A DNA stretch of 52,221 nucleotides. Source: Deltaproteobacteria bacterium (GTDB taxonomy: Bacteria > Desulfobacterota > Desulfobulbia > Desulfobulbales > Desulfocapsaceae). Location of the stretch: positions 1 to 52,221 of the forward strand of contig PDQP01000050.1 in the NCBI GenBank assembly GCA_002747805.1, read 5' to 3'. Each line of letters opens with the position of its first letter. Position 1 is the stretch's first letter. Under the pieces are notes generated by a model. That model saw nothing but the letters and a program-made list of their open reading frames with translations, did not search any database and was not told where the DNA came from. A program made the translations under genes and the position numbers. This document shows, in pieces, positions 3,985 to 51,998 of the stretch.

Positions 3985-5709
3985 TCAGATACCGGCTTTA
4001 AGATTTTCGGGAAATCTGCCGGAAACCGCAAAGTCATTAACCACATTTTGATGAATTTGCAGGGCCGCATCCACTATTTGCCTGAGGTGAGAGGTTGCAT
4101 CGGCGGATAAATCCTGAAAGCTGCCGCCATAGCCGACGAAGTTAGCCGAATCATTATTCATAACCCATTGGATTTTAATCAATACTTCGGTAAGCATTTT
4201 CAGATCATAGCCATTTTCATCCACAGAAGCTATATTCAGCCGATCACCAGGCTCAATCTGAATATCTTCATGTTCATTTTTCATAATCACAAAGCCAAGC
4301 CCGGATTCCGACAGGTTCACCACTCCAGCCGGCATGGAAACTCCCATACCGGACACGCTAAGAACCAGTCTGGGCCCGGTCTTCATGGTAAAGTAAATCC
4401 GCTGATGCCGCCTCTTTTGAATAAATTCCGAGGCAACCCTTCTCACCTTGCCGCCATCGGACAAGACCGTGCAATCAAGCCCAAGATGGCTGCTGACGGT
4501 CTGCACAATCTCGGTCGGCGAGGCCTCGGTATCAGCAAGGCCGTCCTGTTCCACCTTTTCAATATCATCACTTACCATACAGGTTGAAGGCTGCTTGATG
4601 ATAATCCTGCCGGACTTGCCCTTGAAATATCTCAGTGCCTCAAGGGAACATGCAGCACCGGACAGCATGGTCAGGGCAAACTTGCCGGTAAAAATATCGG
4701 CAACCGAACAAATAAGGGCATCTATACCGGATTCATCCGCCGCCGAAGGCATCCCCGAATTAATCAGGAAGAAATTACCCTCATTTTCCGCCAGCTGATC
4801 AACCATGCCGGGCGTACCAATATAGCTGTAACCAGCGAGCAGAGGAACTTCGGAAGAAGCAGGCAGCACCGGAATACGGCAAATCTGGTTGATATAAACC
4901 ACCAAGGGCAAAACAAGGGCCTCCGGCATCTCCTGAACCACCAGCACCGTGCCGTCAAAGCCGCCCGGAAATCTGGTAAAAACATTAAACAGCTCGGCAA
5001 TACCGCCGGCACCGGACAAGACCAGCAATAACTGACCACAGGGGATATTGTGTCCAGCCGGTTTCACTTGAGTTGCCATACTGTATGACGGGGCGTTTAA
5101 TCTGGTAAATTCGCCAATCCTCGCCCTGGCTGCCTTATGTATGGTCTTGATAAACCTGTGCTGAACCTCGTCTTCCTTATGCTCACGGGTGGGTTTGACC
5201 AGAAAATCCACCGCACCAAAGCGGAGAAAATCGATAATGGTATTTTGGGAACGGTTACTAAGGTTGCTGACAATAATCACCGGACATGGATGACTGAGCA
5301 TCAGATGCTTTAATACCGAGGTGCCGCCCATGCCGGGCATATTGACATCAAGAGTGATAACATCCGGTTTTACCTCCCTCGTCTTCTGCAGGGCCTCATC
5401 GCCGTCAGCCGCCTCGCCAACCACCTCCAGGGTGCCGTCCGACTCAATCATCTTCTTGATAATACGCCTGAAAAGTTTTGAGTCATCGACTATCAAAACC
5501 CGTTTTCTGCGGTCTGGATCATCCTCACATCCGGCCTCCAGCAGCCGGTTCTTGATGGCGACATCCGAGCTGATAATATCATCCGGCTTTTCCTTGGAAA
5601 TGGTGATCATAAAACCGCATTCCCGGCAGTTAAAGCTCTGAAACTTATCTTTTATATTGACCAGATCCACATCGTAGCGGGAACCGCAGTCTTCACAAAA
5701 AACAATCAT
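3985..5709 (-). CDS. Four-domain signalling protein: zinc ribbon, REC, degenerate CheB-like methylesterase domain and PilZ
   Basis: N-terminal CxxC...CxxC ribbon (MIVFCEDCGSRYDV...FNCRECGF). REC domain (RVLIVDDSKLFRR...PDVITLDVNMPGMGG...VKP). CheB-like domain in which LSGAGG, QEMP and SGAACS replace GASTGG, QHMP and GMGNDG. C-terminal PilZ with intact RRHQR and NLSESG motifs. Confidence 0.8.
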   Translation of the reverse strand: MIVFCEDCGSRYDVDLVNIKDKFQSFNCRECGFMITISKEKPDDIISSDVAIKNRLLEAGCEDDPDRRKRVLIVDDSKLFRRIIKKMIESDGTLEVVGEAADGDEALQKTREVKPDVITLDVNMPGMGGTSVLKHLMLSHPCPVIIVSNLSNRSQNTIIDFLRFGAVDFLVKPTREHKEDEVQHRFIKTIHKAARARIGEFTRLNAPSYSMATQVKPAGHNIPCGQLLLVLSGAGGIAELFNVFTRFPGGFDGTVLVVQEMPEALVLPLVVYINQICRIPVLPASSEVPLLAGYSYIGTPGMVDQLAENEGNFFLINSGMPSAADESGIDALICSVADIFTGKFALTMLSGAACSLEALRYFKGKSGRIIIKQPSTCMVSDDIEKVEQDGLADTEASPTEIVQTVSSHLGLDCTVLSDGGKVRRVASEFIQKRRHQRIYFTMKTGPRLVLSVSGMGVSMPAGVVNLSESGLGFVIMKNEHEDIQIEPGDRLNIASVDENGYDLKMLTEVLIKIQWVMNNDSANFVGYGGSFQDLSADATSHLRQIVDAALQIHQNVVNDFAVSGRFPENLKAGI

Positions 5710-5783
5710 ATTATAAGCCTCCGCAGGCGGGCCATGGTTATTTATGATGGTTCAAACCGCTGAAAAACAAGGCGGCAAAAATT

Positions 5784-6203
5784 TTATTTGTCCTGGGCAG
5801 AATATCTTACCTGCTTGAGATATGATTTCAGGGCCTTGTAATCATCTTCAAAAATATCCAGAAATTTGGCTCCTATTTTCATCCGCCCTTCACTTTCACT
5901 AACCCAGGCGACCTCAACGATTGCCGTCAGGGGTGCGGCGACACGTTGATCATCAACCAGCATGGATACCCCCTTGCGGTGATGCTGCCAGCCGGAAATA
6001 TCCACAGAAATACAGAGATGATCACCTTTTTTATAGTCGCCCGCCAGACAAAAGCAGATGCCGTCCTCACTCAGGTTCTCCAAGGCGGCCTTCTCGCCGG
6101 GCCCGGCGGCCATCGGATAGGCAAGACGCTTAACCGAGAGTTCTCCGCCCTTTTTTATCCTTACCTTTTCCCGCAGTTTTCTGTCCTCTGCCTTGTCTGA
6201 CAT
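5784..6203 (-). CDS. Stand-alone PilZ-domain protein
   Basis: 139 aa with the RxxxR motif (REKVR) and the D/NxSxxG motif (NLSEDG) at PilZ-typical spacing. Confidence 0.7.
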   Translation of the reverse strand: MSDKAEDRKLREKVRIKKGGELSVKRLAYPMAAGPGEKAALENLSEDGICFCLAGDYKKGDHLCISVDISGWQHHRKGVSMLVDDQRVAAPLTAIVEVAWVSESEGRMKIGAKFLDIFEDDYKALKSYLKQVRYSAQDK

Positions 6204-6220
6204 AAATAATTTACCGATTT

Positions 6221-7252
6221 TTATTTCAGGATGGTATCAATACCCTTAATCCCCGTCAAGGATGCCTTTTTAGCAAAGCTGTCATCAACCAGCCCCTCTA
6301 CCCTTTCATCATCAACCAGACCAAATTGTTTCATCACCTTTGCCATATACTGAAATTCCTCATCCAGCGGCACATACTTGTCAAAAACAATCCGGTTTTC
6401 ATTGGGGCTGGTCAGGGCATATTCAACCAGATCCGCCGGTTGATTCCAATAGGAAGCGGCTATTGCCGCCGCCTCCGGCAGATTCTTTTTTGCCCACATG
6501 CCCGAACGCACCGCCCCTGCAACCAGCTTTTCCACCTGCTCCGGGTGCTGCTCGATAAAGTCTTGCCTGACCAGCATCAGATTGCAGATAAAGCCGGGCC
6601 ACACATCCTCGGCATAGGTAAACACAGTGGAATCGCCGTTTTGCAAGGTCTTGGCCGCAAAAGGCTCGCCGACATAATAGGCATCAAGCGCCCCGGATGA
6701 CAAGGCGGCCGGCATATCGGGCGGATTCATCTCCACCACCTTCAATCTGCCGCCGAGACCGTATTTCTCGGCCAGCAGTCTAACGCTCAAATTATGGCCG
6801 GAATACCGCATCGGCACCGCCACCGTCAGCCCGGCCAAATCTTCCATTTTCTCGGCCTTTAGCTCCTTGCGGACAACAAAGGTGCTTTCATGCCGATTGC
6901 CGATATAGACCACCTTGACATCCTCACCCTGCTGCCGCAGCACAATAGCCAAGGGGGCAATGATAAAGGCCGCCTCAATATTGCCGTTGCGCAGGGCCTC
7001 GCCCATCTCGGCAAAGGAAGCAAATTTAACCGCAGAAAAACGAAGGCCCTCCCCTTCCCTGGATGCATAATCCAAAAGCGGGGCGGCCAGATTGGTGATA
7101 ACCGGCATATAGCCCATATGCACTACCTCACGGCCGCCGGAATCGAAATTGACCCGGTAGTGCAGAAAACTGATAAAAACAAACCAGCCCGCCAGAATAA
7201 CCCCAACCAGTACACTTCTCGGCACACGTGCCAGATAATTATTAAACGGCAT
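6221..7252 (-). CDS. ABC transporter substrate-binding protein, NitT/TauT (NMT1-like) family, membrane-anchored
   Basis: The body matches the SsuA/NrtA/NMT1-like fold (GYMPVITNLAAPL..., AAFIIAPLAIVL). Start trimmed to M34 (MPFNNYLARVPRSVLVGVILAGWFVFISF, a TM anchor). The longer track ORF would run through the upstream ATPase gene. Confidence 0.75.
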   Translation of the reverse strand: MPFNNYLARVPRSVLVGVILAGWFVFISFLHYRVNFDSGGREVVHMGYMPVITNLAAPLLDYASREGEGLRFSAVKFASFAEMGEALRNGNIEAAFIIAPLAIVLRQQGEDVKVVYIGNRHESTFVVRKELKAEKMEDLAGLTVAVPMRYSGHNLSVRLLAEKYGLGGRLKVVEMNPPDMPAALSSGALDAYYVGEPFAAKTLQNGDSTVFTYAEDVWPGFICNLMLVRQDFIEQHPEQVEKLVAGAVRSGMWAKKNLPEAAAIAASYWNQPADLVEYALTSPNENRIVFDKYVPLDEEFQYMAKVMKQFGLVDDERVEGLVDDSFAKKASLTGIKGIDTILK

Positions 7253-8033
7253 CGGGAACCCCCAGCATAAAAAACACCTCTTTCCGCAGTTTAAGCAGCT
7301 CCGGCTCCTCGGTAATATGCCGCGGATGAGGATGCACCAGTTTATGGTCAAGCTGCACCGCCGCCGGTCTGCCGCTTAAAATCACAATGCGGTCTCCCAT
7401 CACCAGGGCATCATCAATATCATGGGTTACAAAAATAACGCTTTTACCAGTGTATAAGTGCATCATCACCACTTCTTCCCGCATCCTCATATGGGTCAGG
7501 AAGTCAAGGCCGGTAAAAGGCTCGTCCATAAACAGGGTGCGGGGATCAACCGCCAGGGCTCTGGCCAGCTCCACCCGCCGCTGCATCCCGCCGGAAAGCT
7601 CGTATGGATAACGCTGACCGGCTCCAGTCAGCTCCACCATATCGATATATTCCTGAATCTTGTTATTTCTTTCCTCTTCGTCCTTGATATTCCTAAGTCC
7701 CAGGCCGACATTTTGCTGAACCGTCATCCAGGGCAGCAAGGCACTATGCTGATAGACAAAGATATGATCGGAACTGGGGCCTCTCATGGGTTTTCCGTCC
7801 ACCAGCACCTCTCCGGCCGTAGCCTGCTCAAAACCGGCAATAATCCTGAGCAGGGTCGATTTGCCGCAGCCGGACGGGCCGAGGATGCAGACCATCTCCC
7901 CTTCTTCAAACTCAAGATTGATGTCTTCCAGAATCCGCAGCCTCTTGCCGGGACTGCTGCTTTCAAGTTCTCTCGATTTGCGTCTTTTTTCAGTGTACTC
8001 CTTGCACAAACCGGAAATAACAATATGACTCAT
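7242..8033 (-). CDS. ABC transporter ATP-binding protein (NitT/TauT family)
   Basis: Walker A GPSGCGKST, signature LSGGMQRR, Walker B LFMDEPF and H-loop VTHD. Confidence 0.9.
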   Translation of the reverse strand: MSHIVISGLCKEYTEKRRKSRELESSSPGKRLRILEDINLEFEEGEMVCILGPSGCGKSTLLRIIAGFEQATAGEVLVDGKPMRGPSSDHIFVYQHSALLPWMTVQQNVGLGLRNIKDEEERNNKIQEYIDMVELTGAGQRYPYELSGGMQRRVELARALAVDPRTLFMDEPFTGLDFLTHMRMREEVVMMHLYTGKSVIFVTHDIDDALVMGDRIVILSGRPAAVQLDHKLVHPHPRHITEEPELLKLRKEVFFMLGVPDAV

Positions 8034-8119
8034 GGCAATAATCTCCGTCCGGCAATTACGGCAGCACCCAAAAGTACACCAAGACCAACTTTTTTCAAGC
8101 TACTAAACATATTATTCAT
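8030..8119 (-). CDS. Possible 29-aa hydrophobic micro-protein between the permease and ATPase genes
   Basis: ATG...TGA ORF encoding MNNMFSSLKKVGLGVLLGAAVIAGRRLLP. Its TGA overlaps the ATPase ATG (ATGA), consistent with translational coupling. It has one predicted TM span. No convincing SD sequence was seen. Confidence 0.25.
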   Translation of the reverse strand: MNNMFSSLKKVGLGVLLGAAVIAGRRLLP

Positions 8120-8170
8120 AAATAAAAATATCAACTTAAATCCCAAATCCCCAATCCCCAAAGGACCACC

Positions 8171-8947
8171 CTAACGGGACAGATTCGCCCAGGAAACCGA
8201 ATCACTTTTTCCCAGCCATTTCATTACCATATCAAGGCCGAGACCAGTCAGGCCAATCACCACCATACCGGCCATCACATAATCCATCCTCAAGGCATTA
8301 CGTGAATCCAGAATCAGGTAGCCAAGGCCGGAATCAACCGCAATCATCTCGGCCGCCACCACCACCAGCCAGGCAATGCCCAGGGTAATCCGCAGGGCAG
8401 TAAGCACCGAGGGCAGCATGGCCGGAACAATAATCCGGTTGACAATCTCCCAGGTGGTCAGCCCGAAATTGGCCGCAACCTGAAAGTAGGTCGGCTTGAT
8501 TGATTTAACCGCAAGGGTGGTAGAGACCACCAGCGGAAAAAAACTTGACAGGAAAATAAGAAAAACGGCAGGCATATCACCAATGCCGAACCAGAGCATC
8601 GCCAAAGGAATCCAGGCCAGGGGAGAAATGGGCCGCATAAACTGGATAATCGGGTTAAAGGCATCCATCAGGTTCTGACTGCGGCCAAAGAGCATCCCCA
8701 GGGGAACCGCAAACAGGATGGCAAGATAAAAACCGGCCGTTACCCTGAACAGACTGGCTATGGTATGCTTAATCATGGAGCCGTTTAAGGTTAGTTCCCA
8801 AATACTGGCAACCACTCTTAAAGGCCCGGGGAAGACCTGGCTGCTCCAGCCGCCGAAAGCACTAGCCAGAAACCAGACCAGGGTAACACCGCAAAAAGTA
8901 ACGAAAGGTAAAAAAAAACTTCTCGGCAATATTTTCATGGCAAACAA
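8171..8947 (-). CDS. ABC transporter permease (NitT/TauT family)
   Basis: 258 aa with about six hydrophobic spans and a BPD-transport core similar to TauC/SsuC (AAEMIAVDSGLGYLILDSRN). Confidence 0.85.
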   Translation of the reverse strand: MFAMKILPRSFFLPFVTFCGVTLVWFLASAFGGWSSQVFPGPLRVVASIWELTLNGSMIKHTIASLFRVTAGFYLAILFAVPLGMLFGRSQNLMDAFNPIIQFMRPISPLAWIPLAMLWFGIGDMPAVFLIFLSSFFPLVVSTTLAVKSIKPTYFQVAANFGLTTWEIVNRIIVPAMLPSVLTALRITLGIAWLVVVAAEMIAVDSGLGYLILDSRNALRMDYVMAGMVVIGLTGLGLDMVMKWLGKSDSVSWANLSR

Positions 8948-8982: not shown

Positions 8983-9942
8983 CTAATTACTGCCTGCAGG
9001 TAAAAGCCTGACAATCTCCTTAGCCAGCTCCACATGCTGCAAACCGGCCATACTTTTGCGGTCATAGGCGATAGCCGGCAGGGAAACAATCTGGGATTCC
9101 TTGATCTTGCTGTCATCGGCAATGATGGTGTCAAGCATCCTGTCGCCATATAGTTCCCGCAGCTTGGTATAAATGAGCTTGGATGCGACCTCTTCCTTTC
9201 TATACATGGTAATCAGCACCCGGAAAACCAGATCCGGATTGATCTTGCCGTGCATCAGGTTAATCAGCTTCTGAATCTTTTTCACCCCGTCAGCGGCCAG
9301 AAACTCACAAGGACAGGGGATAATCGCCATTCTGGAAGCGGTCAGGGCATTCAAGGTAAAAAATTCAATGGCCGGCGGCGTATCAATCAGGATATAATCA
9401 AACTCATCCTTCAATAAATTCAGCCTGTCCCGCAAGAGAAACTCAAAAAACCTTTTCCCGAAATGTCTCTTGTTCAAAAGGGACATATTCACATTTGACG
9501 GCAGGATAAATAAACCGGCATAACGGGTTGGAATGATATAATCGCCGAAACTATCCGCACCAGAATCAACCATTTCAAAAAAAGAATTACGGTTGCGGTA
9601 GCCAAGGGCAAGACTGAGGTTGGCCTGAGCATCAAAGTCAATCAGCAGCACCTTTTTCTTCAGCAAAACCAGGGATAAACCAAGATTAAGACAGGTGGTA
9701 GTCTTGGCCACCCCGCCCTTCTGATTGGTTACGGTAATCACCGTTTGCCTAGGCAACTGCTGCAGGGCAAGCTCCCGGTCAAAAAAATTCAGGCCGCCCT
9801 TTTCCTCACCCGCCTTAACCAGCTCAACCTTACCCTTGCACTGCTTGCAACGAAGCCGGTCAAGATTTTCCGGAACCTTGCCGCTCTTTAATTTGTGCCG
9901 CTTACCGCACCCTGTGCATACAATGAACATTTTTTTCCCCAT
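8983..9942 (-). CDS. ParA/MinD-family ATPase with an N-terminal four-Cys zinc ribbon
   Basis: CTGCGKRHKL...LRCKQCKGK ribbon followed by the deviant Walker A (TNQKGGVAKTTT) and LLIDFDAQANLS. The start may instead be the ATG at 9930 (MFIVC...), which has a GGGGA RBS. Confidence 0.8.
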   Translation of the reverse strand: MGKKMFIVCTGCGKRHKLKSGKVPENLDRLRCKQCKGKVELVKAGEEKGGLNFFDRELALQQLPRQTVITVTNQKGGVAKTTTCLNLGLSLVLLKKKVLLIDFDAQANLSLALGYRNRNSFFEMVDSGADSFGDYIIPTRYAGLFILPSNVNMSLLNKRHFGKRFFEFLLRDRLNLLKDEFDYILIDTPPAIEFFTLNALTASRMAIIPCPCEFLAADGVKKIQKLINLMHGKINPDLVFRVLITMYRKEEVASKLIYTKLRELYGDRMLDTIIADDSKIKESQIVSLPAIAYDRKSMAGLQHVELAKEIVRLLPAGSN

Positions 9943-9967: not shown

Positions 9968-11068
9968 CTACGCCATGTGCAGATGTCCCCGAACGGTCTC
10001 CAATATAGCACCAGGTATGGCATGATCATTAACCACCCGATCCACCACCTGCTGCTGAATGGCATTTTCGGTAAGATTGGGAAAGACACAATAATGATTG
10101 TCATGGGCCATGGTAACACCGCCGTATTCACGGATATTAGCCAGCCCCATTGCCCCGTCATCGCCGATACCGCCAAGCAGCACCCCGGCAATAAACCCGT
10201 CAAAGGACTCGGCCGCTGAATTATAAAGCATGTCAATGGGCTTATCTACCGCTTCACCCACCATAACCGCATATTTTTCATCGCCGATATGATCAAGGAC
10301 CAGGGAATTTTCATTGGAACCTATATAGCAAACCCCCGGCTCAATAATGGTGTCTTCCTGCAGGGCCTTGATTCTCCAGGAGACAAACTTGTCAAACTCC
10401 TCGACAAAGGAAGGCAGAATCTTATTGGAAATTGACTGAATAACAATGATGCTGGTCTGCGGCATCCGCATCATATGGGCCATTGTCCGAATAACCGTAT
10501 TCGGCCCGCACAGGTTAGTCCCCATCAGCACCAAGGCCTCGGGAGCCGCCCCGCCGCCTGCCGCCCCCGCCTCATCCGCCGCAAAAATCGGCAGCTTGGC
10601 CCGGCGGATATTATCCACATTGACCGAGGCCGCCATCTTGACCCGTTCGATGATTCTCTCCCGCCCTTCATTCAAATCCCGGGAAACTGCACCGGAAGGC
10701 TTAGGCACAAAATCAACCACGCCAAGCCTCAAGGCCTCAAAGGTAACCGCCCCGTCAGTAAACAAGGAGCTTAATACCACAATGGGAATCTGACACTTGA
10801 TCATCACATGCCTGGTGGTGCTAATACCGTTCATCACCGGCATATCCATATCCAGGGTAATCACGTCCGGTTTTAGCTCTTTTGCCTTTTCCAAGCCGAG
10901 CAAGCCATTTTTCGCATCGCCGACCACCTCAATCATGGGGTCGGAATTCAATATATCGGATACGGCCCGGCGCATCACGCCTGCATCATCTACGACCAGA
11001 ACTCTAATTTTATCTTCCATGCTCAACCTGCTCAACCAAGTGGTTAGATTTTCAAGGTGATAAATCAC
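9968..11068 (-). CDS. REC plus degenerate CheB-like methylesterase-domain protein
   Basis: REC domain (IRVLVVDDAGVMRR...DVITLDMDMPVMNG...VPKP). CheB-like domain in which GTNLCG and IQSIS replace GASTGG and TQHMP, while GIGDDG is retained. GTG start at 11068, with an alternative ATG at 11020 (MEDKIRVLVVDD). Confidence 0.8.
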   Translation of the reverse strand: MIYHLENLTTWLSRLSMEDKIRVLVVDDAGVMRRAVSDILNSDPMIEVVGDAKNGLLGLEKAKELKPDVITLDMDMPVMNGISTTRHVMIKCQIPIVVLSSLFTDGAVTFEALRLGVVDFVPKPSGAVSRDLNEGRERIIERVKMAASVNVDNIRRAKLPIFAADEAGAAGGGAAPEALVLMGTNLCGPNTVIRTMAHMMRMPQTSIIVIQSISNKILPSFVEEFDKFVSWRIKALQEDTIIEPGVCYIGSNENSLVLDHIGDEKYAVMVGEAVDKPIDMLYNSAAESFDGFIAGVLLGGIGDDGAMGLANIREYGGVTMAHDNHYCVFPNLTENAIQQQVVDRVVNDHAIPGAILETVRGHLHMA

Positions 11069-11073
11069 CAGAC

Positions 11074-12522
11074 CTAGGCCGGATCGCTCACCATTTTCGC
11101 CTCCGCCCGCTCAACAATAATCCTGACCAGTTCAGAACCAAGGCTGCTGTCGGGGGCAACCAAAGCATCCGGGCATTTTTCCAGGGCCGATTCCGCCATT
11201 TCCTTAACCAGACAGGTTTCCGGCTGCTGGATCAGGAGACCAGCTCGGCTATGCTGCAGTTCGTTCATGCCGTCAGTGCCGTCAGTAGAGGCCCCCGACA
11301 AAACTACGCCCATGCAGTCCGCCCCCATCACTTCCGCCATGGAAATCATCAGCATATCGCCTGCACCGCGGCGGTCAGGAAAGGATGAAGGAGTAAGATG
11401 AAGACTATAACCATCTCCGCCCTTCTCAATCTTGGCATACTCAAGACCGGAAACCAGATAACATACTCCCCCCTCCAGAGGCATGCCGTCCGTTGCCCTT
11501 TTAACCGGAATCTGGCTATGTGAACCGATATAGCTGACAAAGGCATCCACATGCTCAGGATCGGCATAAAGCACCACCATAAAGGCGGCCCCAAGACCAG
11601 CAGGTATCTGGGGGATAACCTTCAGCAAGGTACCGTATCCTCCCTCGGCGGCCACCATACAGACCGCAAAATCCATGGGCCTGCCGCCTTCATCACCCTG
11701 CTGATCCAGCTTTTCAGTCCGAATATAGCGTACAGAATTGATGGACACATCGGCCGCCAACTGCACCTTCTTACGGATGAGCTGTTTTTGTTTTTCCTTG
11801 TCCTCCCCGCTCAGGCTGGAAGGCTTGGGGATAAAGTCAACCGCCCCGTATTTCAGGGTATCAAAGGTAATGGTCGCCCCCTCATGGGTCATGGCACTGA
11901 CCATGACCGTGGGAATCGGAAAGCGGATCATAATCCTCTTCAAGGCGGCCACCCCATCCATCACCGGCATATTGATATCCATGGTGATCACATCGGGATG
12001 CACCTTGGGAATAAGCTCCAGGGCCTCCTCGCCATCGGCGGCGTTGCCGACTATAATAAACTCCTCCTCGCCGAAAATCGAGGCCAGGGCCTTGCGCATC
12101 ATGGACGAATCATCAACTACCAGCACCCTGATCCGCCGATCTCTTTCCTTAAGTCCGGTCTCCTGGGCAGCATCGCCTGATCCGGCGGCCGTCTCGCCCT
12201 CATCCTGTTTACGGCAGGCCTCCATGATCAGATGCTGCCAGTTCAGGGTGATGGTTTTTTTATCCGGTTTTTCCCCCATTCGGAATTCAAAACTGCCCTG
12301 ATTCCAGCCCATGATGGTATAAAAGGCATCCTCGCCGACCACATCGCCCACCTCGGCATGAACAATCTCGCCTTCAACCAGATAAACCTTGCCGTTCCTG
12401 CTGCCCTTGCTGACCACAATGGCCGCCGTGGTGCCGCCGATACAGCTCATCTGCAGTATATCGGGAAGCTGAACGCTTAAGGTGCCAATAAATCCGCTAT
12501 CTTTTCCTTCAGAGTTACTCAT
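11074..12522 (-). CDS. PATAN (DUF4388), REC and degenerate CheB-like domain protein
   Basis: N-terminus LSVQLPDILQMSCIGGTTAAIVV...GKVYLVEGEIVHAEVGDVVGEDAFYTIMGWNQGSFEF matches the DUF4388/PATAN pattern. It is followed by REC (IRVLVVDDSSMMRK...DVITMDINMPVMDG...IPKP). The CheB-like domain has AAEGGY and VLYAD in place of GASTGG and TQHMP. The start overlaps the cheA stop by 8 nt. Confidence 0.8.
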   Translation of the reverse strand: MSNSEGKDSGFIGTLSVQLPDILQMSCIGGTTAAIVVSKGSRNGKVYLVEGEIVHAEVGDVVGEDAFYTIMGWNQGSFEFRMGEKPDKKTITLNWQHLIMEACRKQDEGETAAGSGDAAQETGLKERDRRIRVLVVDDSSMMRKALASIFGEEEFIIVGNAADGEEALELIPKVHPDVITMDINMPVMDGVAALKRIMIRFPIPTVMVSAMTHEGATITFDTLKYGAVDFIPKPSSLSGEDKEKQKQLIRKKVQLAADVSINSVRYIRTEKLDQQGDEGGRPMDFAVCMVAAEGGYGTLLKVIPQIPAGLGAAFMVVLYADPEHVDAFVSYIGSHSQIPVKRATDGMPLEGGVCYLVSGLEYAKIEKGGDGYSLHLTPSSFPDRRGAGDMLMISMAEVMGADCMGVVLSGASTDGTDGMNELQHSRAGLLIQQPETCLVKEMAESALEKCPDALVAPDSSLGSELVRIIVERAEAKMVSDPA

Positions 12523-16528: not shown

Positions 16529-17182
16529 TCAATCCTGCAAGTCTCCCGGCCAAGTCTTATCTCCAGCCATGGCCTTATTGTCCACAATCAGAATATCATA
16601 CAGCTTGAAATTCGTCATAAAATATTCAATGGTCTCCAGCTCTTCCCGCACCGCCATAATATCTTCTTCCTGCGGGGCCGAATCCTCCTCACCCTGCTTA
16701 GTCTCCCGGCCATCGGTAAGCTGTTCAAGCACCGGCCCTGCCCGCTGGATGGTCTTCCAGACCAGCAGTACCACCTCCTGAAAGTTAGTGGAAAGGTCGT
16801 TAAGGGATTTGCCGATCCCGTCCATCTCGGGACAGGCATATTCCGGCACCGACAATTCCAGATCGCCGTCTGCTATCCGGCAGGCAAATTTCGACATTTC
16901 ACCCGCAGGACGCAGGATAAAACGGTATAACATAATCAGGGCGGCAACGCCTCCGGCCAAAATCAGGGCCAAACAAATCAGGATAGAAGCCCGCATCCCC
17001 AGAAGCAGGGAGGAGGCCGCCGCATCGCCGCCGCGGGAAACAGCCGAGACCAGGCTGGCAGCAAAATCAGCACTGCCGAGGCGAAGGGTCAGCCAGCCGG
17101 CGGCCAACAGGGGGACAATCAAGGTCAGGATGAAAAGTACCCAGATAAAAACATGCGTTTTCCGTAATTGAAGCCTTGCCAT
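16529..17182 (-). CDS. Two-TM HAMP-domain protein without a recognisable output domain
   Basis: Start trimmed to MARLQLRK... at 17182 (GGAG RBS), because the longer track ORF overlaps cheY. Two hydrophobic spans are followed by a HAMP signature (FILRPAGEMSKFACRIADGDLELSVPEY) and an acidic tail of about 90 aa. Confidence 0.65.
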   Translation of the reverse strand: MARLQLRKTHVFIWVLFILTLIVPLLAAGWLTLRLGSADFAASLVSAVSRGGDAAASSLLLGMRASILICLALILAGGVAALIMLYRFILRPAGEMSKFACRIADGDLELSVPEYACPEMDGIGKSLNDLSTNFQEVVLLVWKTIQRAGPVLEQLTDGRETKQGEEDSAPQEEDIMAVREELETIEYFMTNFKLYDILIVDNKAMAGDKTWPGDLQD

Positions 17183-17243
17183 TTCACTCCTGCCCTGAAA
17201 GACCGCACCGTTAATTGAACGTAAATAAAATAAACCCGAAAAC

Positions 17244-17588
17244 CTAAATAAGTTCCAGCAGCTGATCAAGATTATGCTTGTTGACAAAACCCAAGGCACC
17301 GACCTCAGCCGCCCGGCCGCTGTACTGCTCCTTATCCAGATTTGAAAAGAAGACAATCCTGGCCCCGGAATCAAGGGTCATAATTTCCCTTGCCGCCGAA
17401 AATCCATCCATATCACGCATGGTTACATCCATAATAACCAGTTCCGGCCGATGCTGGTCATACATATCGATAGCCTCGCGGCCGTTTCTTGCCTCGGCGG
17501 CAATCTGGTATCCCTTCTTTTCCAGCAGATTACGAACCATTTTACGCATGATTGATGAATCATCAACTATCATTATCTGTTTGCTCAT
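17244..17588 (-). CDS. cheY: Single-domain response regulator CheY
   Basis: 114 aa with IMIVDDSSIMRK, the phospho-acceptor context LVIMDVTM and a conserved K in FVNKH. Confidence 0.9.
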   Translation of the reverse strand: MSKQIMIVDDSSIMRKMVRNLLEKKGYQIAAEARNGREAIDMYDQHRPELVIMDVTMRDMDGFSAAREIMTLDSGARIVFFSNLDKEQYSGRAAEVGALGFVNKHNLDQLLELI

Positions 17589-17634: not shown

Positions 17635-18138
17635 CTACTCAGCCATTGCCTTCAGGTGCTTAATCTCGTCTGTGTGCAGAATACGGCCAAAGTTAAGCAG
17701 AATCAAAAGACGCTCATCAATCTCACACACTCCGTCTATATATTGACTTTCAAGACCGGCGGTAACAATTTCCGGCGGCGGTTCAATGGTTTTGGTAAGA
17801 ATTTTCAAGACCTTGGTTACTGAATCAACCCGAAAGCCGGTAATCCGGCCTTCAATTTCAAGGATCAGGATCCAGACCTTCTCCTCATCCTCTTCCGCCT
17901 TTTTCTGCAGCAGGTTCAGCCTCTTACGCAGATCGATAACCGGAATAATATTACCGCGCAGGTTAATCACCCCTTCCACAAAGGCAGGAGAATTGGGAAT
18001 GGAGGTAATGGCCGCATCACGGATAATTTCCCTGACCTTTAGAATTTCCACTCCGAACAGTTCCGTTCCGATGGAAAAACCAACCAGCTGCATGGAATCT
18101 TCAATGACAGTTTTCTGACCTGTACTCGTAACGTCCAT
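17635..18138 (-). CDS. cheW: Chemotaxis coupling protein CheW
   Basis: 167 aa with QLVGFSIGTELFGVEILKVREI...VINLRGNIIPVIDLRKRL, typical of the CheW fold. Confidence 0.9.
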   Translation of the reverse strand: MDVTSTGQKTVIEDSMQLVGFSIGTELFGVEILKVREIIRDAAITSIPNSPAFVEGVINLRGNIIPVIDLRKRLNLLQKKAEEDEEKVWILILEIEGRITGFRVDSVTKVLKILTKTIEPPPEIVTAGLESQYIDGVCEIDERLLILLNFGRILHTDEIKHLKAMAE

Positions 18139-18237: not shown

Positions 18238-20826
18238 CTAGGCACCGGCCTCGATCTTAAACTTACGAACCTCATCGGCAAGTTCAGTCGAGAGCTTTCT
18301 CATGTTCTCGGAAATGTTAATAACCTCACCGGCTCCGTTATAGGTGTTTTCCGCCTGAGCTGCACCTTCCTCGGTGGCGGCCACAACCCGCTTGGAACGT
18401 CCGGCCTGAGCGGCAGTCAGCTGGTCAATAGATTCTGAACGGGAAACAACCTCACGCATATCACCATCAGCTTCCTGGGCCAGGCGGTTAGAGTTTTCCA
18501 CCAGTTTATCGATGTTTTCAACCTGCTGAACCAGACGGCCAAGGGCCTCTTCCGCAGCAGCCCGTCTGGCACCCTGCTGACCGGCCATATTCATAATCTC
18601 GGATGAAAAGGCGTTTACTTCGGCCATAATGTTCTGCACTGACTTGGAACTTTCAGACAGGGAGTCTGCAACTCTGGTAATATCTTCAATAGCCTGAATG
18701 TTACCCTGACCACCCTGGGAGATTTTCTCCAGAGCAAGCTGGGACTGATTAGACAGCTTGGTACCGTCCTCAACCCTCTTGGTTGAGTCCTTAATCAGCT
18801 TGGTAATCTCGTTGGCCGCATCCGCAGAACGCTGGGCCAGCTTACCAACCTCGTCTGCAACCACAGCAAAACCCTTACCGTGTTCACCGGCACGGGCGGC
18901 CTCAATGGCGGCGTTCAGGGCCAGCAGGTTGGTCTGTTCGGTAATTTCGGTAATAACCGAGATGATCTCTGAAATCTGTTCGGATGATTCGGCAATGGCC
19001 TGCATACCTTGCACGGTGGCGTTTACCGTATCACGACCCTCTTGTGCGGCCTGCAGCACTTCCTGACCCTGCTCGCGGGAGCTTTTGGCTGCCTCGGCCA
19101 GCAGATTAACCGCTTCCCGCATGGCATCCACAGCGGCGGTGGCTTCCTGCACCGATTCTCCCTGCTTGGTTGCGGTAGCCACAACCTTACCACCAGTCTC
19201 ACCCATATCGGAAACCCTGGCGATAACCGTGTTAGCTTCCTCTTTCTGCGAACCTGTAGCATCCGCCACCTGCTCCATGGAGCTAACCAGTTCCTGAAGT
19301 CTGGCACCGGAGTCGGTAGCTTCCTGCTTCTGGGCGGCGGCGTTGCTGGCAACCTCACCGGCAGTCTTACCCATTTCGGAAATCAGACCCTGCATTTCCT
19401 GCATCATGGCAAGGTTCTTCTCGGCACGATCTCGGTTGGCCTGGGCACGCTGGGCCACGTTACCGGCACTGCTTTCAACCGCAATTGATGAACTATTAAC
19501 CAGGGTAAAGGAACGCCTTAGCTCCTGAATCAGCTCGTTAACGGCGGCGGCCATATCACCGACCTCGTCCTTACTTTCAACCGCCACGTTCTGGGTAAAG
19601 TCACGATTAGCAGCAACCCTTTGCACCGTACGGGCAATCCTTACAATCGGGTTAGCAACGGTACGGGCAGTAAACAGCCAAATAAAAATTGCCGCCACCA
19701 GAATAACCAGGGTAATAACCAGCACCGTGGTCATAGCCTGATTCTGAAACTCAGCAATACGGATGGAGGAGGCCAGAATATCTTCCTCGTAGGCACCAGC
19801 CGAAATAACCAGGTGCCAGGGAGCAAAATAGGCAAAGTGTACGGTTTTCTTTTTGGCTACCGGGTCGCCCGGGTTTTGCCACATATAGGTTTGAGAACCA
19901 AACTCGCCCTCTCTTAGTGACTTGGCCGCCTCAATCCTTTCCTTAACGATCAGGGTTCCAGTCTCAACGTCCTTGATGTTAGAAATATCCTCACCATCAC
20001 GCTTACCATTTCTTGAAACAAGATAAACACCCTTTTCATCAAGAACGGTAATATAACCAGATTTACCAATGGTAACATCATATAATGACTGCCGGATGTC
20101 CTTATCAATCTCGATCAGTTCACCGACATAGATGGCACCGATAACCTGACGATTGCTATCAAAAATAGGAGCATATACGTTTTGGTATAATCGGCCAACC
20201 ACCTCACTCATACCCCGGAAGGTATCTCCTCTTAATACCGTGGAAATTACCGGATTTTCCTTACCATCCGGCTTGGTGCGGGGGATATAGGTGCCGACCG
20301 CCCGGCTACCGTCCGCCTTACGGATAGTGGTGGCCACCCGCAGCATATCACCGGCATCATTCATCCTTTGAAAGATGGTAACATCAATCCCGCTGTTAAT
20401 CCTTTTAACCTCATCAACAATATTCAGGCCGGATTCACCGCCCGCCTGAGTCTGACCAAACCAGAGGGAAGGCAGGCTGACCGGTACCGTGGAACCGGTA
20501 AACTGGTTAACCGCATTCCAGCGGACATTTTCGCCAGTCAGATCCAGGCTAACACTGCCCTCACGGCCAATAAAGTCCTTGGCATGTTCCATTGCTGTAT
20601 TAAGTTCTCTGACAACAACATCATACTCAAACTTGATGGTCTCATAGGAAGTCTTAACAATCCGGTCAACTGAACGGTATGCAATTTTGGACGTGTCATC
20701 ACGAGCATGCTCCTGCACCTGCAAACCGGAGAAATAGTTAACAACTGAAACAACGATCAAGGGGACAATGGTAAGAAGAATACCGATTGTCAGCAATTTT
20801 GGTACCAGCCTAAGATTCTTTAGCAT
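18238..20826 (-). CDS. Methyl-accepting chemotaxis protein with a large Cache-type periplasmic sensor and HAMP
   Basis: 862 aa. TM1 is followed by a periplasmic region of about 340 aa with Cache-like motifs, then TM2, HAMP and the signalling hairpin tip [34 protein letters not shown]. Confidence 0.9.
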
Positions 20827-40034: not shown

Positions 40035-40548
40035 TCCTAAGATTTGAGCAAAACCCCAAAAAAATATTTTTTGGTTTTATCCATACTTGTCTAGATGCCC
40101 GTAGTTGCGTTCGTAGTTGCGATAATTGCCTTTATATTTTAAGTATTATCAAGATAAATACAGTAAATTTTATTAAATTTTATTTTTTTTAAGTTTAATT
40201 AAATGATTAAACTGTGAAAAAACAGCCGGGCGGCCAGCCTATTATCCCATTATACCGAATAAATTGACAAGGTTTATCAAGACCACATCAAGACAAGGAT
40301 TTACAAGGCGGTAAGAGAGAAAAACCAAGAAATAACAAGCAATTATCATTGTGGAAATATTGGAAAGGCCGTTTATAGAAAGTTTCTGCAAACGGACTTT
40401 GACCAAAGATGGAAATTGGATTTTATCAGCGTGCGTGCTGGGGGGTGCGTTTCGGCCCCGGCGGCCTACTTTTCAAGTGAATCACTTATGATGATGAAAA
40501 AAATAAAAAATAAAAAATAAAATTCCAACTCCATATTAGGAAGCTTTG
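40035..40548. other. Candidate replication origin (oriC) upstream of dnaA
   Basis: 514-bp non-coding region containing a strongly AT-rich block of about 85 bp (40131-40215). It has one near-consensus DnaA box, TTATCCATA, at 40077-40085. A repeated 9-mer, TTATCAAGA, occurs at 40146-40154 and 40274-40282. A direct repeat, GTAGTTGCG, occurs at 40101-40109 and 40113-40121. Confidence 0.45.
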
Positions 40549-41862
40549 ATGAACTGGGAAGAAACCAAGGAACAATTAAAAACTGCCGTTGACAGCAGTG
40601 AATACAATCTATGGATAAAACCCATCGAGTGTGCCAAAGTTGAGGATCATAAGCTGCATCTTAGCTGCCCGGACCGTTATTTTTCCGCCTTTGTCAGTCG
40701 CAAATATCTTGGCTTGATTCAGGAAAAGGCAAGGGAAATAACCGGCAAACCATATCAGGTCAGTCTGGATGGTGATAAGGGCTGCCCGAAAAAAAACGGG
40801 CCCAGACCGATGATGCTGCCGGGGATGCCGTCTGGCGGCTCTAGGATCAGAAACCTGCATCCGCGTTATACCTTCGATGAGTTTATGGTCGGGGAAAGCA
40901 ATATTTTGGCTCAGTCAGCCTGCAAGGCCGTCTCCAGCCGCGATGAATCCGTTTCCCCCTGCCTGTTTATGAATGCCGGCACCGGACTTGGCAAAAGCCA
41001 CCTAACCCATGCCGTCGCCCATCAGGTACTGGCAGAGATGCCCTTTACCAGACTTCATTATCTGACCGCCCGGCAGTTTTCCGCCGAGATGGTCAAGGGC
41101 ATCATGAACCAACAGATAGAGGAATTTAAGCAAAAATATCAAGAACATTGCGATATTCTCCTGCTTGAGGACGTGCATACCCTGGCCGGTAAAAAAAAGA
41201 CCCAGGAAGAGCTGAACGGGCTGGTGGACGCCATGATTAAAAGCGGCAAAAGAGTAATATTTACCGCCAAACATGCCCCGCATGAACTGGATGGAATTGA
41301 CGGTGAGCTATGCTCAAGGATGACCAACGGCCTGGTTACCGCCATCAAGGCGCCGGATCTGACTACCCGCAAAAGAATTGTAGCCAGCAAGGCCGCCCAG
41401 CAGACCCTTGAACTGGAAGAGGAATTTATTGAGCTGCTTGCCGGTAATATCAAGGGGGACGTAAGGAAAATAGAATCTGCGGTAGCTGCCCTTAAGGTCA
41501 GAGCAAACCTTGACGGGGTGATTGATAAGCAGCTAGTACAGGAAATTGTCAGTTCGGTCGCCGGGGTGGTTACAGCCCTTACTCCGGCGGTGATATGCGA
41601 ATTTATCAGCAGCCAGTTCAAGGTCAGCGTTAAGGATCTGCAGTCAAAATCCCGCAAAAGAAAAATTACCTATCCGCGCCAGCTTGCCATGTATCTAAGC
41701 CGGAAATACACCAGCGACTCCCTGGCCGACATCGGCAGGGTCTTTAACCGCGATCATTCCACGGTGCTTTACTCAATCCGGGTAATCTCCGATCTGGCCA
41801 GAAGGGATCAGTCCGCCTCAGCGCAGCTTGACTTATTAAACCAGAAGGTCCAGCAGCTATGA
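40549..41862 (+). CDS. dnaA: Chromosomal replication initiator protein DnaA
   Basis: N-terminus WEETKEQLK...YNLWIKPI, AAA+ Walker A GTGLGKSHL, Walker B LLLEDVH and a C-terminal DNA-binding helix (YPRQLAMYLSRKYT..SLADIGRVFNRDHSTVLYS). ATG at 40549 behind an AGGAAG RBS. Confidence 0.95.
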   Translation: MNWEETKEQLKTAVDSSEYNLWIKPIECAKVEDHKLHLSCPDRYFSAFVSRKYLGLIQEKAREITGKPYQVSLDGDKGCPKKNGPRPMMLPGMPSGGSRIRNLHPRYTFDEFMVGESNILAQSACKAVSSRDESVSPCLFMNAGTGLGKSHLTHAVAHQVLAEMPFTRLHYLTARQFSAEMVKGIMNQQIEEFKQKYQEHCDILLLEDVHTLAGKKKTQEELNGLVDAMIKSGKRVIFTAKHAPHELDGIDGELCSRMTNGLVTAIKAPDLTTRKRIVASKAAQQTLELEEEFIELLAGNIKGDVRKIESAVAALKVRANLDGVIDKQLVQEIVSSVAGVVTALTPAVICEFISSQFKVSVKDLQSKSRKRKITYPRQLAMYLSRKYTSDSLADIGRVFNRDHSTVLYSIRVISDLARRDQSASAQLDLLNQKVQQL

Positions 41863-50495: not shown

Positions 50496-50572
50496 GGTCC
50501 CGTAGCTCAGCAGGATAGAGCACCAGATTCCTAATCTGGGTGTCGCAGGTTCGAATCCTGCCGGGATCACCA
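50496..50572 (+). tRNA. tRNA-Arg (anticodon CCT)
   Basis: Manual cloverleaf. The 7-bp acceptor stem is GGTCCCG/CGGGATC with one G-T pair. D arm GCTC-AGCAGGATA-GAGC. Anticodon arm CCAGA-TTCCTAA-TCTGG. Variable loop GTGTC. T arm GCAGG-TTCGAAT-CCTGC. Discriminator A with an encoded CCA. Confidence 0.9.
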
Positions 50573-50867
50573 TTTTTTTTGGGGAAGTTCAAAATCGAAC
50601 CATCACCTTTAGTAATTCCTGCAGGTTTCGTATGGCAAAACGGCTCCTTTTTACGAAACCATCGTTACTTGCCACAAGTTAAAATCATTTTACCTCGTTG
50701 ATTTACGGGCGGTATAGAAAAATGATAGGTATTGCCTGCATTTTCCGCCGTTAAAAAGCGTAAATTTGAATCGCGGAAAACTAATTTTTTGGTACTTCCA
50801 CCTACAGTTTCAAGTTGCCCATGCGGAGAATAACCTATATAATCACCGCAAATAATGCGGAGATTAT

Positions 50868-51998
50868 ATGTGGATTTATGAAGAAAAAGACTGGCCGAAC
50901 TTTATCTGGAACAATGAAACCATCTTGCCGCTGCTTGCAGAAGCACGGCATCAGCAGGGACGCTTGCTGGGCAAAGTGGAGGAGCTTGGTTTTGCCGTTC
51001 GGCAAGAGGCAACTCTTGATATACTGACCGCTGATGTTGTAACCTCCTCGGCCATAGAGGGCGAAAGGTTTGATACCGATGAGGTAAGATCATCTATTGC
51101 CGGAAAGCTGGGAATTCCCCTGCCCAGGGAGGTTGCAGTTGGGCGGGGTGTTGACGGTATGGTCGAGATGATGCTGGATGCAGTGCAAAACTGCCGAAAA
51201 CCGCTGACCGCAGAGCGTTTATTCGGCTGGCATGCAGCTCTTTTTCCAACAGGCAGGAGCGGTATGCACCGCATTACTGTCGCCGGATGGCGGGTTGCAG
51301 AGGCAGGAGCCATGCAGGTTGTATCGGGGCCGATAGGACATGAAAAGGTGCATTATGAGGCGCCGGAGGCATCTATGCTTGATGCGGAAATGACAAAATT
51401 TCTCTTATGGTTTGAAGCAAAATTAAGCCTTGATCCGGTTATTAAAGCAGGCATTGCCCATTTATGGTTTGTTACTCTCCATCCCTTTGAAGACGGAAAT
51501 GGACGGATTGCACGGGCAATTTCAGATATGGTGCTGGCCAGGGCAGACGGGACTTCCGGCCGCTTTTATTCCATGTCCAGGCAGATCGAAAACGAACGCA
51601 GGGAATATTATACCCGTCTTGAGAGGCAACAGAGGGGCGGTCTTGATATTACCCCATGGCTGTTATGGTTTTTGACCTGTTTTTCCCATGCTGTTGATGA
51701 TGCAGAAAGTACGCTTGCCTTGGTTCTTTTCAAAGCAAGGTTGTGGAATTTTATCAGTCAATTCCGTATAAATAAGCGGCAGACCCTTATGATAAGCCGC
51801 CTGCTTGACGGGTTTGAGGGTAAGCTGACCACCTCTAAATATGCTAAAATCACCAAATGCTCACCAGATACCGCCCTGAGGGATATTAGAGAGCTGGTTG
51901 CCCAAAATATTTTTGTGCAGAACCCGGGCGGCGGGCGGAGTACAAGTTACCGCCTGATAACGGCAGATGAGGTAAAATATTTCTTAAGGGAATCTTGA
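50868..51998 (+). CDS. Fic-family protein with N-terminal DUF4172, class II (auto-inhibited) AMPylase-type
   Basis: Fic active-site motif HPFEDGNGRIAR at 51480-51515. An N-terminal inhibitory-helix motif (S/T)xxxE(G/N), here SSAIEG, lies at 51045-51062. A winged-helix-like C-terminus is present. Confidence 0.9.
   Translation: MWIYEEKDWPNFIWNNETILPLLAEARHQQGRLLGKVEELGFAVRQEATLDILTADVVTSSAIEGERFDTDEVRSSIAGKLGIPLPREVAVGRGVDGMVEMMLDAVQNCRKPLTAERLFGWHAALFPTGRSGMHRITVAGWRVAEAGAMQVVSGPIGHEKVHYEAPEASMLDAEMTKFLLWFEAKLSLDPVIKAGIAHLWFVTLHPFEDGNGRIARAISDMVLARADGTSGRFYSMSRQIENERREYYTRLERQQRGGLDITPWLLWFLTCFSHAVDDAESTLALVLFKARLWNFISQFRINKRQTLMISRLLDGFEGKLTTSKYAKITKCSPDTALRDIRELVAQNIFVQNPGGGRSTSYRLITADEVKYFLRES

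Follow-up and report, generated by a model that had tools for sequence, protein, structure and literature searches.

Does a single polypeptide encoded at the end of a chemosensory operon receive both a phosphoryl group from CheA and the second messenger cyclic di-GMP (c-di-GMP), and if so, on what kind of protein do the two signals meet? This question was raised by a 52,221-nucleotide (nt) stretch of DNA from a Deltaproteobacteria bacterium of the Desulfocapsaceae (assembly GCA_002747805.1, contig PDQP01000050.1, positions 1 to 52,221; hereafter the window), in which an earlier note, made from the sequence alone, had described a 574-amino-acid (aa) protein composed of a zinc ribbon, a receiver (REC), a CheB-like domain devoid of the catalytic triad and a PilZ domain, together with a stand-alone PilZ protein of 139 aa encoded upstream. 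Both open reading frames (ORFs) were found on the minus strand as claimed (Table 1). We hold with moderate confidence that the 574-aa protein, the focal protein of this study, is a CheB-derived pseudo-enzyme regulator with two inputs, CheA phosphorylation and c-di-GMP, in a pathway without methylation-based adaptation.

The four modules claimed for the focal protein were recovered. Pfam assigned Response_reg to aa 71-176 (86 bits), CheB_methylest to aa 230-404 (55.5 bits, cutoff 24) and PilZ (PF07238) to aa 431-546 (26.1 bits, gathering cutoff 22.5), and the ribbon was recognized by its conserved cysteines. The Zn_ribbon_4 family (PF13717) matched aa 1-33 at 19.3 bits, under the gathering cutoff of 30.3; at E<=0.01 it was recognized in 10 of the 12 family members, with a best E-value of 4.9e-6. 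The two cysteine pairs, CEDC at aa 5-8 and CREC at aa 28-31, lie approximately 20 residues apart, and within the family C28 and C31 were invariant and C5 and C8 nearly invariant (at least 90%). In the receiver, D75, the phospho-acceptor D121, S148 and K172 were invariant in 16 sequences and D76 nearly so, and the fold search gave 42% identity to the CheB receiver of T. maritima. The AlphaFold2 (AF2) model of the focal protein (mean pLDDT 73.6) contained a CheY-like receiver, a CheB-fold domain and a ribbon of four short strands over aa 2-38, and its REC plus CheB portion superposed on full-length CheB (1a2o and 6ymz) with a target-normalized Foldseek TM-score of 0.83-0.84. The domain limits proposed earlier agreed within a few codons with those of Pfam and AF2 at most boundaries; only the C-terminal limit of the CheB-like domain had been placed approximately 20 codons short of where Pfam sets it.

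The two c-di-GMP-binding motifs of PilZ domains, defined as RxxxR and [D/N]hSxxG (10.1101/814665), were intact in both proteins, as the earlier note had reported. In the fused PilZ domain they were RRHQR (aa 433-437, nt 4399-4413) and NLSESG (aa 465-470, nt 4300-4317), and in the stand-alone protein REKVR (aa 11-15, nt 6159-6173) and NLSEDG (aa 43-48, nt 6060-6077), the second motif beginning 27 residues after RxxxR in each. The stand-alone protein scored 28.3 bits against PF07238, and thus both proteins passed the profile search that had been proposed as a check. In the AF2 model of the focal protein, six strands (aa 447-532) were followed by a long helix (aa 536-563), and the linker at aa 414-436 was disordered and ran into RRHQR, a disordered RRHQR loop being the expectation for an apo PilZ domain. 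The focal C-terminus matched PP4397 with c-di-GMP bound (3kyf, E 1.6e-6), and the Foldseek matches of the two PilZ modules included the c-di-GMP-bound structures 3kyf, 4xrn, 4rt1, 2rde and 5vx6. By all available sequence and structure criteria, the focal protein is a genuine PilZ and REC protein.

The absence of the Ser-His-Asp triad from the CheB-like domain was also borne out. In the alignment with 1a2o and 6ymz, Ser164 is replaced by G233, His190 by E260 and Asp286 by C354 or S355, and all three triad residues were missing from every full-length family member. The two other CheB-like regulators of the operon have lost Ser and His as well, with N/S/D at the triad positions of the REC-CheB-like protein and A/Y/D in the PATAN-REC-CheB-like protein. 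Across five syntenic clusters, His190 was missing in 14 of 14 CheB-like proteins and Ser164 in 13 of 14, and of the 120 closest relatives in a collection of 5.8 billion proteins, all but P0104 and P0117 were without the canonical GASTGG/QHMP/GxDG triad. The NCBIfam model for CheB (NF001965) has a cutoff of 293 bits; the focal protein scored 190.8, and the other two CheB-like proteins of the window 232 and 229. No CheR was found in the 52-kb window or in the corresponding Che clusters at the related loci L003, L004, L020 and L021, and the MCP (methyl-accepting chemotaxis protein) of the cluster ends without a C-terminal pentapeptide tether. That the cluster as a whole is without a functional CheB or a CheR had gone unremarked in the earlier note. 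Judged by its residues, the focal protein is a CheB relative and not a CheB enzyme. In the source annotation these CheB-like proteins are named 'chemotaxis response regulator CheB', an automated label that masks the pseudo-enzyme state of the three or four CheB-like proteins of the operon, and pseudo-methylesterase response regulators annotated in this way seem to have diversified extensively in Desulfobacterota.

Eleven further full-length proteins with the four modules were found, at 42-59% identity, one of them from a metagenome-assembled genome labeled 'Desulfobulbus propionicus', and the fused form amounted to about 12 clusters at 90% identity. Most homologs of the focal protein begin with MIVFCE(E/D)CG. 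Mean pairwise identity among the 12 full-length proteins was 0.74 for REC, 0.64 for the zinc ribbon, 0.56 for the CheB-like domain and 0.42 for PilZ, whose RxxxR motif was nevertheless invariant (12/12) and whose [D/N]hSxxG motif was kept in 11 of 12, so that the ligand motifs are conserved in a domain that otherwise diverges. Sequence comparison places the triad-less CheB domain clearly under purifying selection. The possibility that the gene is a pseudogene or relic was ruled out by its full-length ORF, the 42-59% identity in 11 further lineages and the 56% identity of the CheB-like domain. The ZnR (zinc ribbon)-REC-CheB-like chassis is much more widespread than the fused form; 39 of 40 relatives of 400-435 aa start with the same CxxC...CxxC ribbon. 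Three cases of a PilZ-less form of 410-413 aa were found, one of them in the cultured relative Desulfobulbus rhabdoformis (GCA_016919065.1). A single-protein scan of genome contigs with over-specific patterns returned only distant relatives, mostly ribbon-only matches. A scan of metagenome contigs with the 12-member alignment returned no new family members; seeded on REC, it found generic CheB-like loci, none of which continued past residue 410. Exact look-ups of the focal protein and of P0007 matched no contig, and a search for sequencing runs gave no match.

When the PilZ region was searched exhaustively with phmmer against 1.84 billion representatives clustered at 50% identity, 97 matches were obtained, of which two were fused (P0008 and P0014) and the remainder, all but three, were stand-alone PilZ proteins of approximately 105-175 aa. 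Among non-fused proteins, those nearest to the fused domain were other stand-alone PilZ proteins, at 27-38% identity. The fused and stand-alone PilZ domains of the window were only 24% identical, so the fused domain is not a read-through of the neighboring gene. Its origin by fusion with that neighbor was likewise ruled out, since the neighboring gene lies upstream and the fused domain is C-terminal.

The stand-alone PilZ protein belongs to a family of 27 clusters, several of which share contigs with genes of the focal family. Across 22 homologs N43 and G48 never varied and R11 and R15 hardly did, and the 12 closest family members had N[LI]SE[ED]G. Its AF2 model was a six-strand barrel with a C-terminal helix (aa 119-137) and a disordered, family-specific insertion (aa 75-85). 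The top fold matches were the c-di-GMP-bound PilZ domains of Alg44, VCA0042 and MotI, and PA4608 (1ywu), which we take to be MapZ, ranked 23rd. The family also has invariant motifs of its own, namely GWQHH, APLTAI and the D-I-x-x-D-D core of FLDIFEDD; these non-ligand motifs likely form a partner-binding surface, and by them the stand-alone PilZ is a distinct subfamily tied to the Che cluster. At 6231-6259 on the minus strand, at the 3' end of the binding-protein gene and just upstream of the pilZ start, the sequence resembles a sigma-70 promoter, with TTGACG and TACCAT separated by 17 nt and an extended -10 TG. The match is one to the consensus, and the PilZ and regulator genes could have a promoter of their own there, inside the operon.

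The assignment of both genes to a Che cluster held, as they are the two 3'-most genes of a compact and conserved Che operon, with 13 genes arranged head to tail on the minus strand, with mostly short gaps or overlaps (largest gap approximately 140 nt). The order is Cache3-Cache2 MCP, CheW, CheY, a small HAMP protein, CheA, PATAN-REC-CheB-like, REC-CheB-like, ZnR-ParA/MinD ATPase, ABC (ATP-binding cassette) permease, ABC ATPase, an SsuA/TauA-type substrate-binding protein, PilZ and ZnR-REC-CheB-like-PilZ. The focal gene is the last of the operon and convergent with tyrS, and a GGAGG ribosome-binding site lies 8 nt 5' of its ATG (at 5709). The earlier note had spoken of HPt modules of CheA in the plural; Pfam gave a single Hpt domain, at aa 15-108, and no extra Hpt or any other Pfam domain was found by Pfam in the linker of approximately 790 aa. 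At the related loci the homologous CheAs vary in length, the shortest having 868 aa and the longest at least 1568 aa.

In Desulfobulbus-type genomes, so called after the named relatives of the focal family, the order CheA, PATAN-REC-CheB-like, REC-CheB-like, ZnR-ParA, ABC transporter, PilZ and ZnR-REC-CheB-like(-PilZ) is kept. In D. rhabdoformis (L004) it reads CheA, PATAN-REC-CheB-like, REC-CheB-like, ZnR-ParA, permease, ATPase, substrate-binding protein, PilZ and ZnR-REC-CheB-like; there the stand-alone PilZ protein (143 aa) is 51% identical to that of the window and the regulator is without PilZ. L021 has the same order as L004 with added HAMP and TauE genes, and both the free PilZ and the fused form are present. 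In L003 the fused form lies inside the ABC genes, no free PilZ is present and there is an extra REC-PATAN-REC-CheB-like protein. In the more distant genome L020 the order is PilZ, REC-CheB-like, MCP, CheW, CheY, HAMP, CheA and REC-PATAN-REC-CheB-like, and the Che cluster is without the ABC transporter. TyrS of the window was 82-85% identical to both Desulfobulbales and Desulfuromonadales proteins, by which only the phylum Desulfobacterota is secure; with the named relatives of the focal family, Desulfobulbales is the probable order.

Together, the receiver residues, the PilZ motifs and folds and the place of the gene in the Che operon make it natural to infer that phosphorylation and c-di-GMP converge on one polypeptide. 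As read from sequence and models, the best reading of its role is that of a non-enzymatic adaptor or output regulator, for which we infer c-di-GMP binding, phosphotransfer and the target. CheA~P would phosphorylate D121, as membership in the operon suggests, and phosphorylation would free a face of the CheB-like domain from the receiver, as it does in CheB. The CheB-like domain would hydrolyze nothing and would present a surface for binding; its partner would most likely be either the array of chemoreceptors and CheA or some downstream component of motility or polarity. Binding of c-di-GMP to the C-terminal PilZ domain, through the RRHQR loop and NLSESG, would be the second condition. One possibility is that PilZ then packs differently in cis against REC or the CheB-like domain, much as HapZ acts on a receiver. 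Another is that a docking site for a partner arises on the long C-terminal helix, a part of PilZ domains that has been highlighted as a candidate for protein-protein interactions (10.1101/814665).

The free PilZ protein is probably a trans-acting partner, by analogy a c-di-GMP adaptor of the same pathway comparable to MapZ on CheR1; its action in trans on the ZnR-REC-CheB-like protein would explain why it adjoins the PilZ-less form in D. rhabdoformis. The zinc ribbon of the focal protein is related to that of the ParA-like ATPase (pairwise E 2e-6), and because both carry it the ribbon probably co-localizes the regulator with the ATPase. The zinc-ribbon ParA recalls the ParA-like proteins that position chemosensory arrays; here the ribbon is shared with a response regulator. 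The PATAN domain binds the type IV pilus motor in cyanobacteria (10.1101/2021.06.11.447907), and the presence of this domain in a paralog of the focal protein gives a lead, by analogy, that the output of the pathway may be pilus-based or polarity-related rather than flagellar.

Several observations weigh against a c-di-GMP-responsive regulator of this kind. PilZ was the least conserved domain of the focal family, at 42% mean pairwise identity, its Pfam scores were only 3.6 (fused) and 5.8 (stand-alone) bits over the cutoff, and Pfam detected it at E<=0.01 in 9 of 12 family members (best 1.4e-8). In P0014 the second motif is DVCEDG, with Cys in place of the motif Ser. In L001, the locus of P0008, the fused gene lies apart from any Che cluster, with only an MCP adjoining; a 225-aa ORF upstream of this homolog was considered as a hidden PilZ and was ruled out by its implausible translation and lack of a Pfam match. 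A cheR or a functional cheB could also lie elsewhere in the genome, the analysis covering 52 kb. For the PilZ-REC protein PixA of M. xanthus, c-di-GMP binding is dispensable for the motility phenotype (PMC8316039), a precedent by which an intact PilZ motif is no guarantee of a role. The marginal Pfam scores and the rapid divergence of the domain would also fit PilZ modules that are c-di-GMP-blind protein-interaction domains, the focal protein being then a phosphorylation-only adaptor. Non-binding PilZ proteins such as P. aeruginosa PilZ and M. xanthus PlpA are well documented (10.1101/814665, PMC8316039), and distant members of the stand-alone family have Gly or Ala in place of the motif Ser. 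However, non-binding PilZ domains usually lose RxxxR and/or the second motif (10.1101/814665), whereas in the fused proteins both were kept almost without exception despite the low identity of the domain, and likewise in the 12 close stand-alone homologs. Moreover, PixB binds c-di-GMP although neither of its two PilZ domains has the motif Ser (PMC8316039). We regard blind PilZ modules as unlikely.

The operon contains four receiver proteins for one CheA and REC was the most conserved domain of the focal protein, and both would be expected if its receiver mainly drained CheA~P as a phosphate sink, the CheB-like and PilZ domains only tuning capacity and having no separate target. CheY paralogs acting as phosphate sinks are established in multi-CheY systems such as those of Sinorhizobium and Rhodobacter chemotaxis. 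A sink, however, needs neither a 184-aa CheB fold at 56% identity, nor a ribbon at 64%, nor a PilZ domain with kept ligand motifs, and the ZnR-REC-CheB-like architecture of 39 of 40 relatives argues for a function of the parts other than REC; this explanation seems improbable to us. Catalysis by the CheB-like domain through other residues, which would make the protein a methylesterase or deamidase under c-di-GMP control, is very unlikely. S232, beside the canonical Ser position, is invariant in the 12 full-length proteins, its SGxGG loop resembles the GASTGG nucleophile loop, and the overall CheB fold is kept; in contrast, the His190 column is free to vary within the family (E, S, T, R or A), the Asp286 column is never acidic in the full-length members, the score is far under the NCBIfam cutoff for CheB, and neither the window nor the related Che clusters hold a CheR to make the substrate.

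Several known systems resemble this regulator in part. The REC-linker-CheB_methylest architecture and fold, the full set of phospho-acceptor residues and the position of the gene downstream of CheA in a Che operon are those of CheB, whereas the focal protein is without the triad, scores below the NCBIfam cutoff and has an additional zinc ribbon and PilZ domain, and its cluster has no CheR partner and an MCP without the pentapeptide. MapZ of P. aeruginosa, a single-domain PilZ adaptor, feeds c-di-GMP into chemotaxis through CheR1 (PMC6370697; 10.1101/2020.02.11.943704). The 139-aa PilZ protein has the same fold and adjoins an adaptation-enzyme-type (CheB-type) protein, but with no CheR in the cluster its presumed partner is a dead CheB-like regulator, and its family has its own invariant motifs; the likeness to MapZ is one of fold. 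PixA binds c-di-GMP (PMC8316039), the 163 sequences of 'cluster 10' are REC-PilZ di-domain proteins (10.1101/2020.02.11.943704), and both share with the focal protein a receiver and a motif-intact PilZ domain on one polypeptide. In contrast, PixA is an orphan outside Che clusters with the order PilZ-REC and no CheB-like domain or ribbon, while the focal gene lies inside a Che operon and its order is ZnR-REC-CheB-like-PilZ. HapZ of P. aeruginosa, which binds the REC domain of SagS at high c-di-GMP and controls phosphotransfer (10.1101/2020.02.11.943704), offers a mechanistic model for PilZ acting on a receiver in cis or in trans, but it is a stand-alone protein that acts on a hybrid histidine kinase outside the Che pathway, and the likeness is one of PilZ fold.

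Fusions of PilZ to REC, GGDEF, EAL, HD-GYP, MCPsignal and CheC are on record (10.1101/814665), Tlp1 of Azospirillum is an MCP-PilZ fusion (PMC3604760), and in V. cholerae the c-di-GMP receptor PlzC acts on chemotaxis with CheX (PMC12799141). In Tlp1, CheC-PilZ and PlzC-CheX, as would be the case at this locus, c-di-GMP receptors are wired straight into chemosensory signaling or adaptation, but there the partner of the PilZ domain, either fused to it or acted on by it, is a receptor or a CheY-P phosphatase. In the literature searched, surveys included and subscription-only papers outside the search, no PilZ domain on a CheB-type regulator was described, nor were triad-less CheB regulators as a class or this Desulfobulbaceae cluster. 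The earlier note had called the convergence of the two inputs an unusual logic gate; REC plus PilZ proteins and links between PilZ and chemotaxis are already documented, and what stands out as unusual is the dead-CheB module between them. The new element is that the carrier of the presumed c-di-GMP input is a dead-CheB response regulator, whereas PilZ-chemotaxis links and REC-PilZ fusions are known. c-di-GMP is known to enter chemotaxis at the receptor in Tlp1, at the methyltransferase in MapZ-CheR1 and at the CheY-P phosphatase in PlzC-CheX; the CheB-derived response regulator of this locus would be a fourth entry point.

If dead CheB domains are phosphorylation-gated binding modules, they would represent a natural conversion of an enzyme to an adaptor inside a signaling pathway and provide a tractable regulator with phosphoryl and c-di-GMP inputs. 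The PilZ-less and PilZ-fused forms, each beside a free PilZ, offer a ready comparison of c-di-GMP input in trans and in cis. The wider context may matter more, namely a conserved Che operon in which all three to four 'CheB' proteins are pseudo-enzymes and no CheR lies in the cluster. One bold extension, which we consider doubtful, is that this clade has exchanged covalent CheR/CheB adaptation for a non-enzymatic system, in which three to four dead CheB paralogs, once phosphorylated, bind the receptor array reversibly. With PilZ on one paralog and a free PilZ adaptor assisting that paralog, c-di-GMP would set the gain or set-point; the output, by way of the PATAN-bearing paralog, may be type IV pilus or gliding behavior, and the zinc-ribbon ParA may organize the system in space. 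If true, this would be a methylation-free, second-messenger-tuned mechanism of adaptation in this Desulfobacterota clade.

The features of the operon and of the focal protein are collected in Table 1.

Table 1. Genes of the Che operon and domains of the focal protein, with positions in the window.
Feature	Position	Strand	Basis or remark
574-aa ZnR-REC-CheB-like-PilZ response regulator	3985-5709	minus	ORF, Pfam, AF2, alignment
Zinc ribbon, Zn_ribbon_4 type, CxxC...CxxC, aa 1-38	5596-5709	minus	Pfam below cutoff plus conserved Cys
Receiver (REC), aa 69-176	5182-5505	minus	Pfam, structure alignment, conservation
CheB-fold domain, triad-less, aa 226-409	4483-5034	minus	Pfam, Foldseek, structure alignment
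C-terminal PilZ, Pfam aa 431-546, barrel plus helix to approximately aa 563	4021-4419	minus	Pfam, AF2
139-aa stand-alone PilZ	5784-6203	minus	ORF, Pfam, AF2, alignment
ABC importer within the Che operon	6221-8947	minus	Kept there in L003, L004 and L021
SsuA/TauA-type substrate-binding protein	6221-7351	minus	True start probably 3' of the listed TTG
ABC ATPase	7242-8033	minus	
ABC permease	8171-8947	minus	
ParA/MinD-type ATPase, N-terminal Cys4 zinc ribbon	8983-9942	minus	Pfam; kept in L003, L004 and L021
REC-CheB-like response regulator	9968-11068	minus	Pfam, structure alignment
PATAN(DUF4388)-REC-CheB-like response regulator	11074-12522	minus	Pfam, structure alignment
CheA, 1326 aa	12515-16495	minus	Hpt, approximately 790-aa linker, dimerization, HATPase and CheW domains
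Small HAMP-only protein, start uncertain	16529-17374	minus	Between CheY and CheA
CheY	17244-17588	minus	Pfam
CheW	17635-18138	minus	Pfam
Cache3-Cache2 MCP	18238-20826	minus	Pfam

The HAMP protein was kept in L003, L020 and L021, where it has 163-229 aa. Its listed TTG start overlaps cheY by 131 nt, and its true start is therefore probably further downstream. The ABC importer is complete and of the SsuA/TauA/NitT type, with a TauE-family gene nearby in L003 and L021, and could be a co-sensor or a transport-coupled input to the operon. The rest of the window was housekeeping, with no GGDEF/EAL and no motility genes, and no c-di-GMP riboswitch or other Rfam family was found in it except a tRNA-Arg. 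A dnaA gene (DnaA_N, Bac_DnaA and Bac_DnaA_C) lies at 40546-41862 on the plus strand, approximately 20 kb from the Che operon, which may place the window near the replication origin; the profile of GC skew was not decisive. A tRNA-Arg(CCT) followed by a DUF4172-Fic/DOC family gene was observed within 50496-51998 on the plus strand, a region that is possibly the edge of an integrated element.

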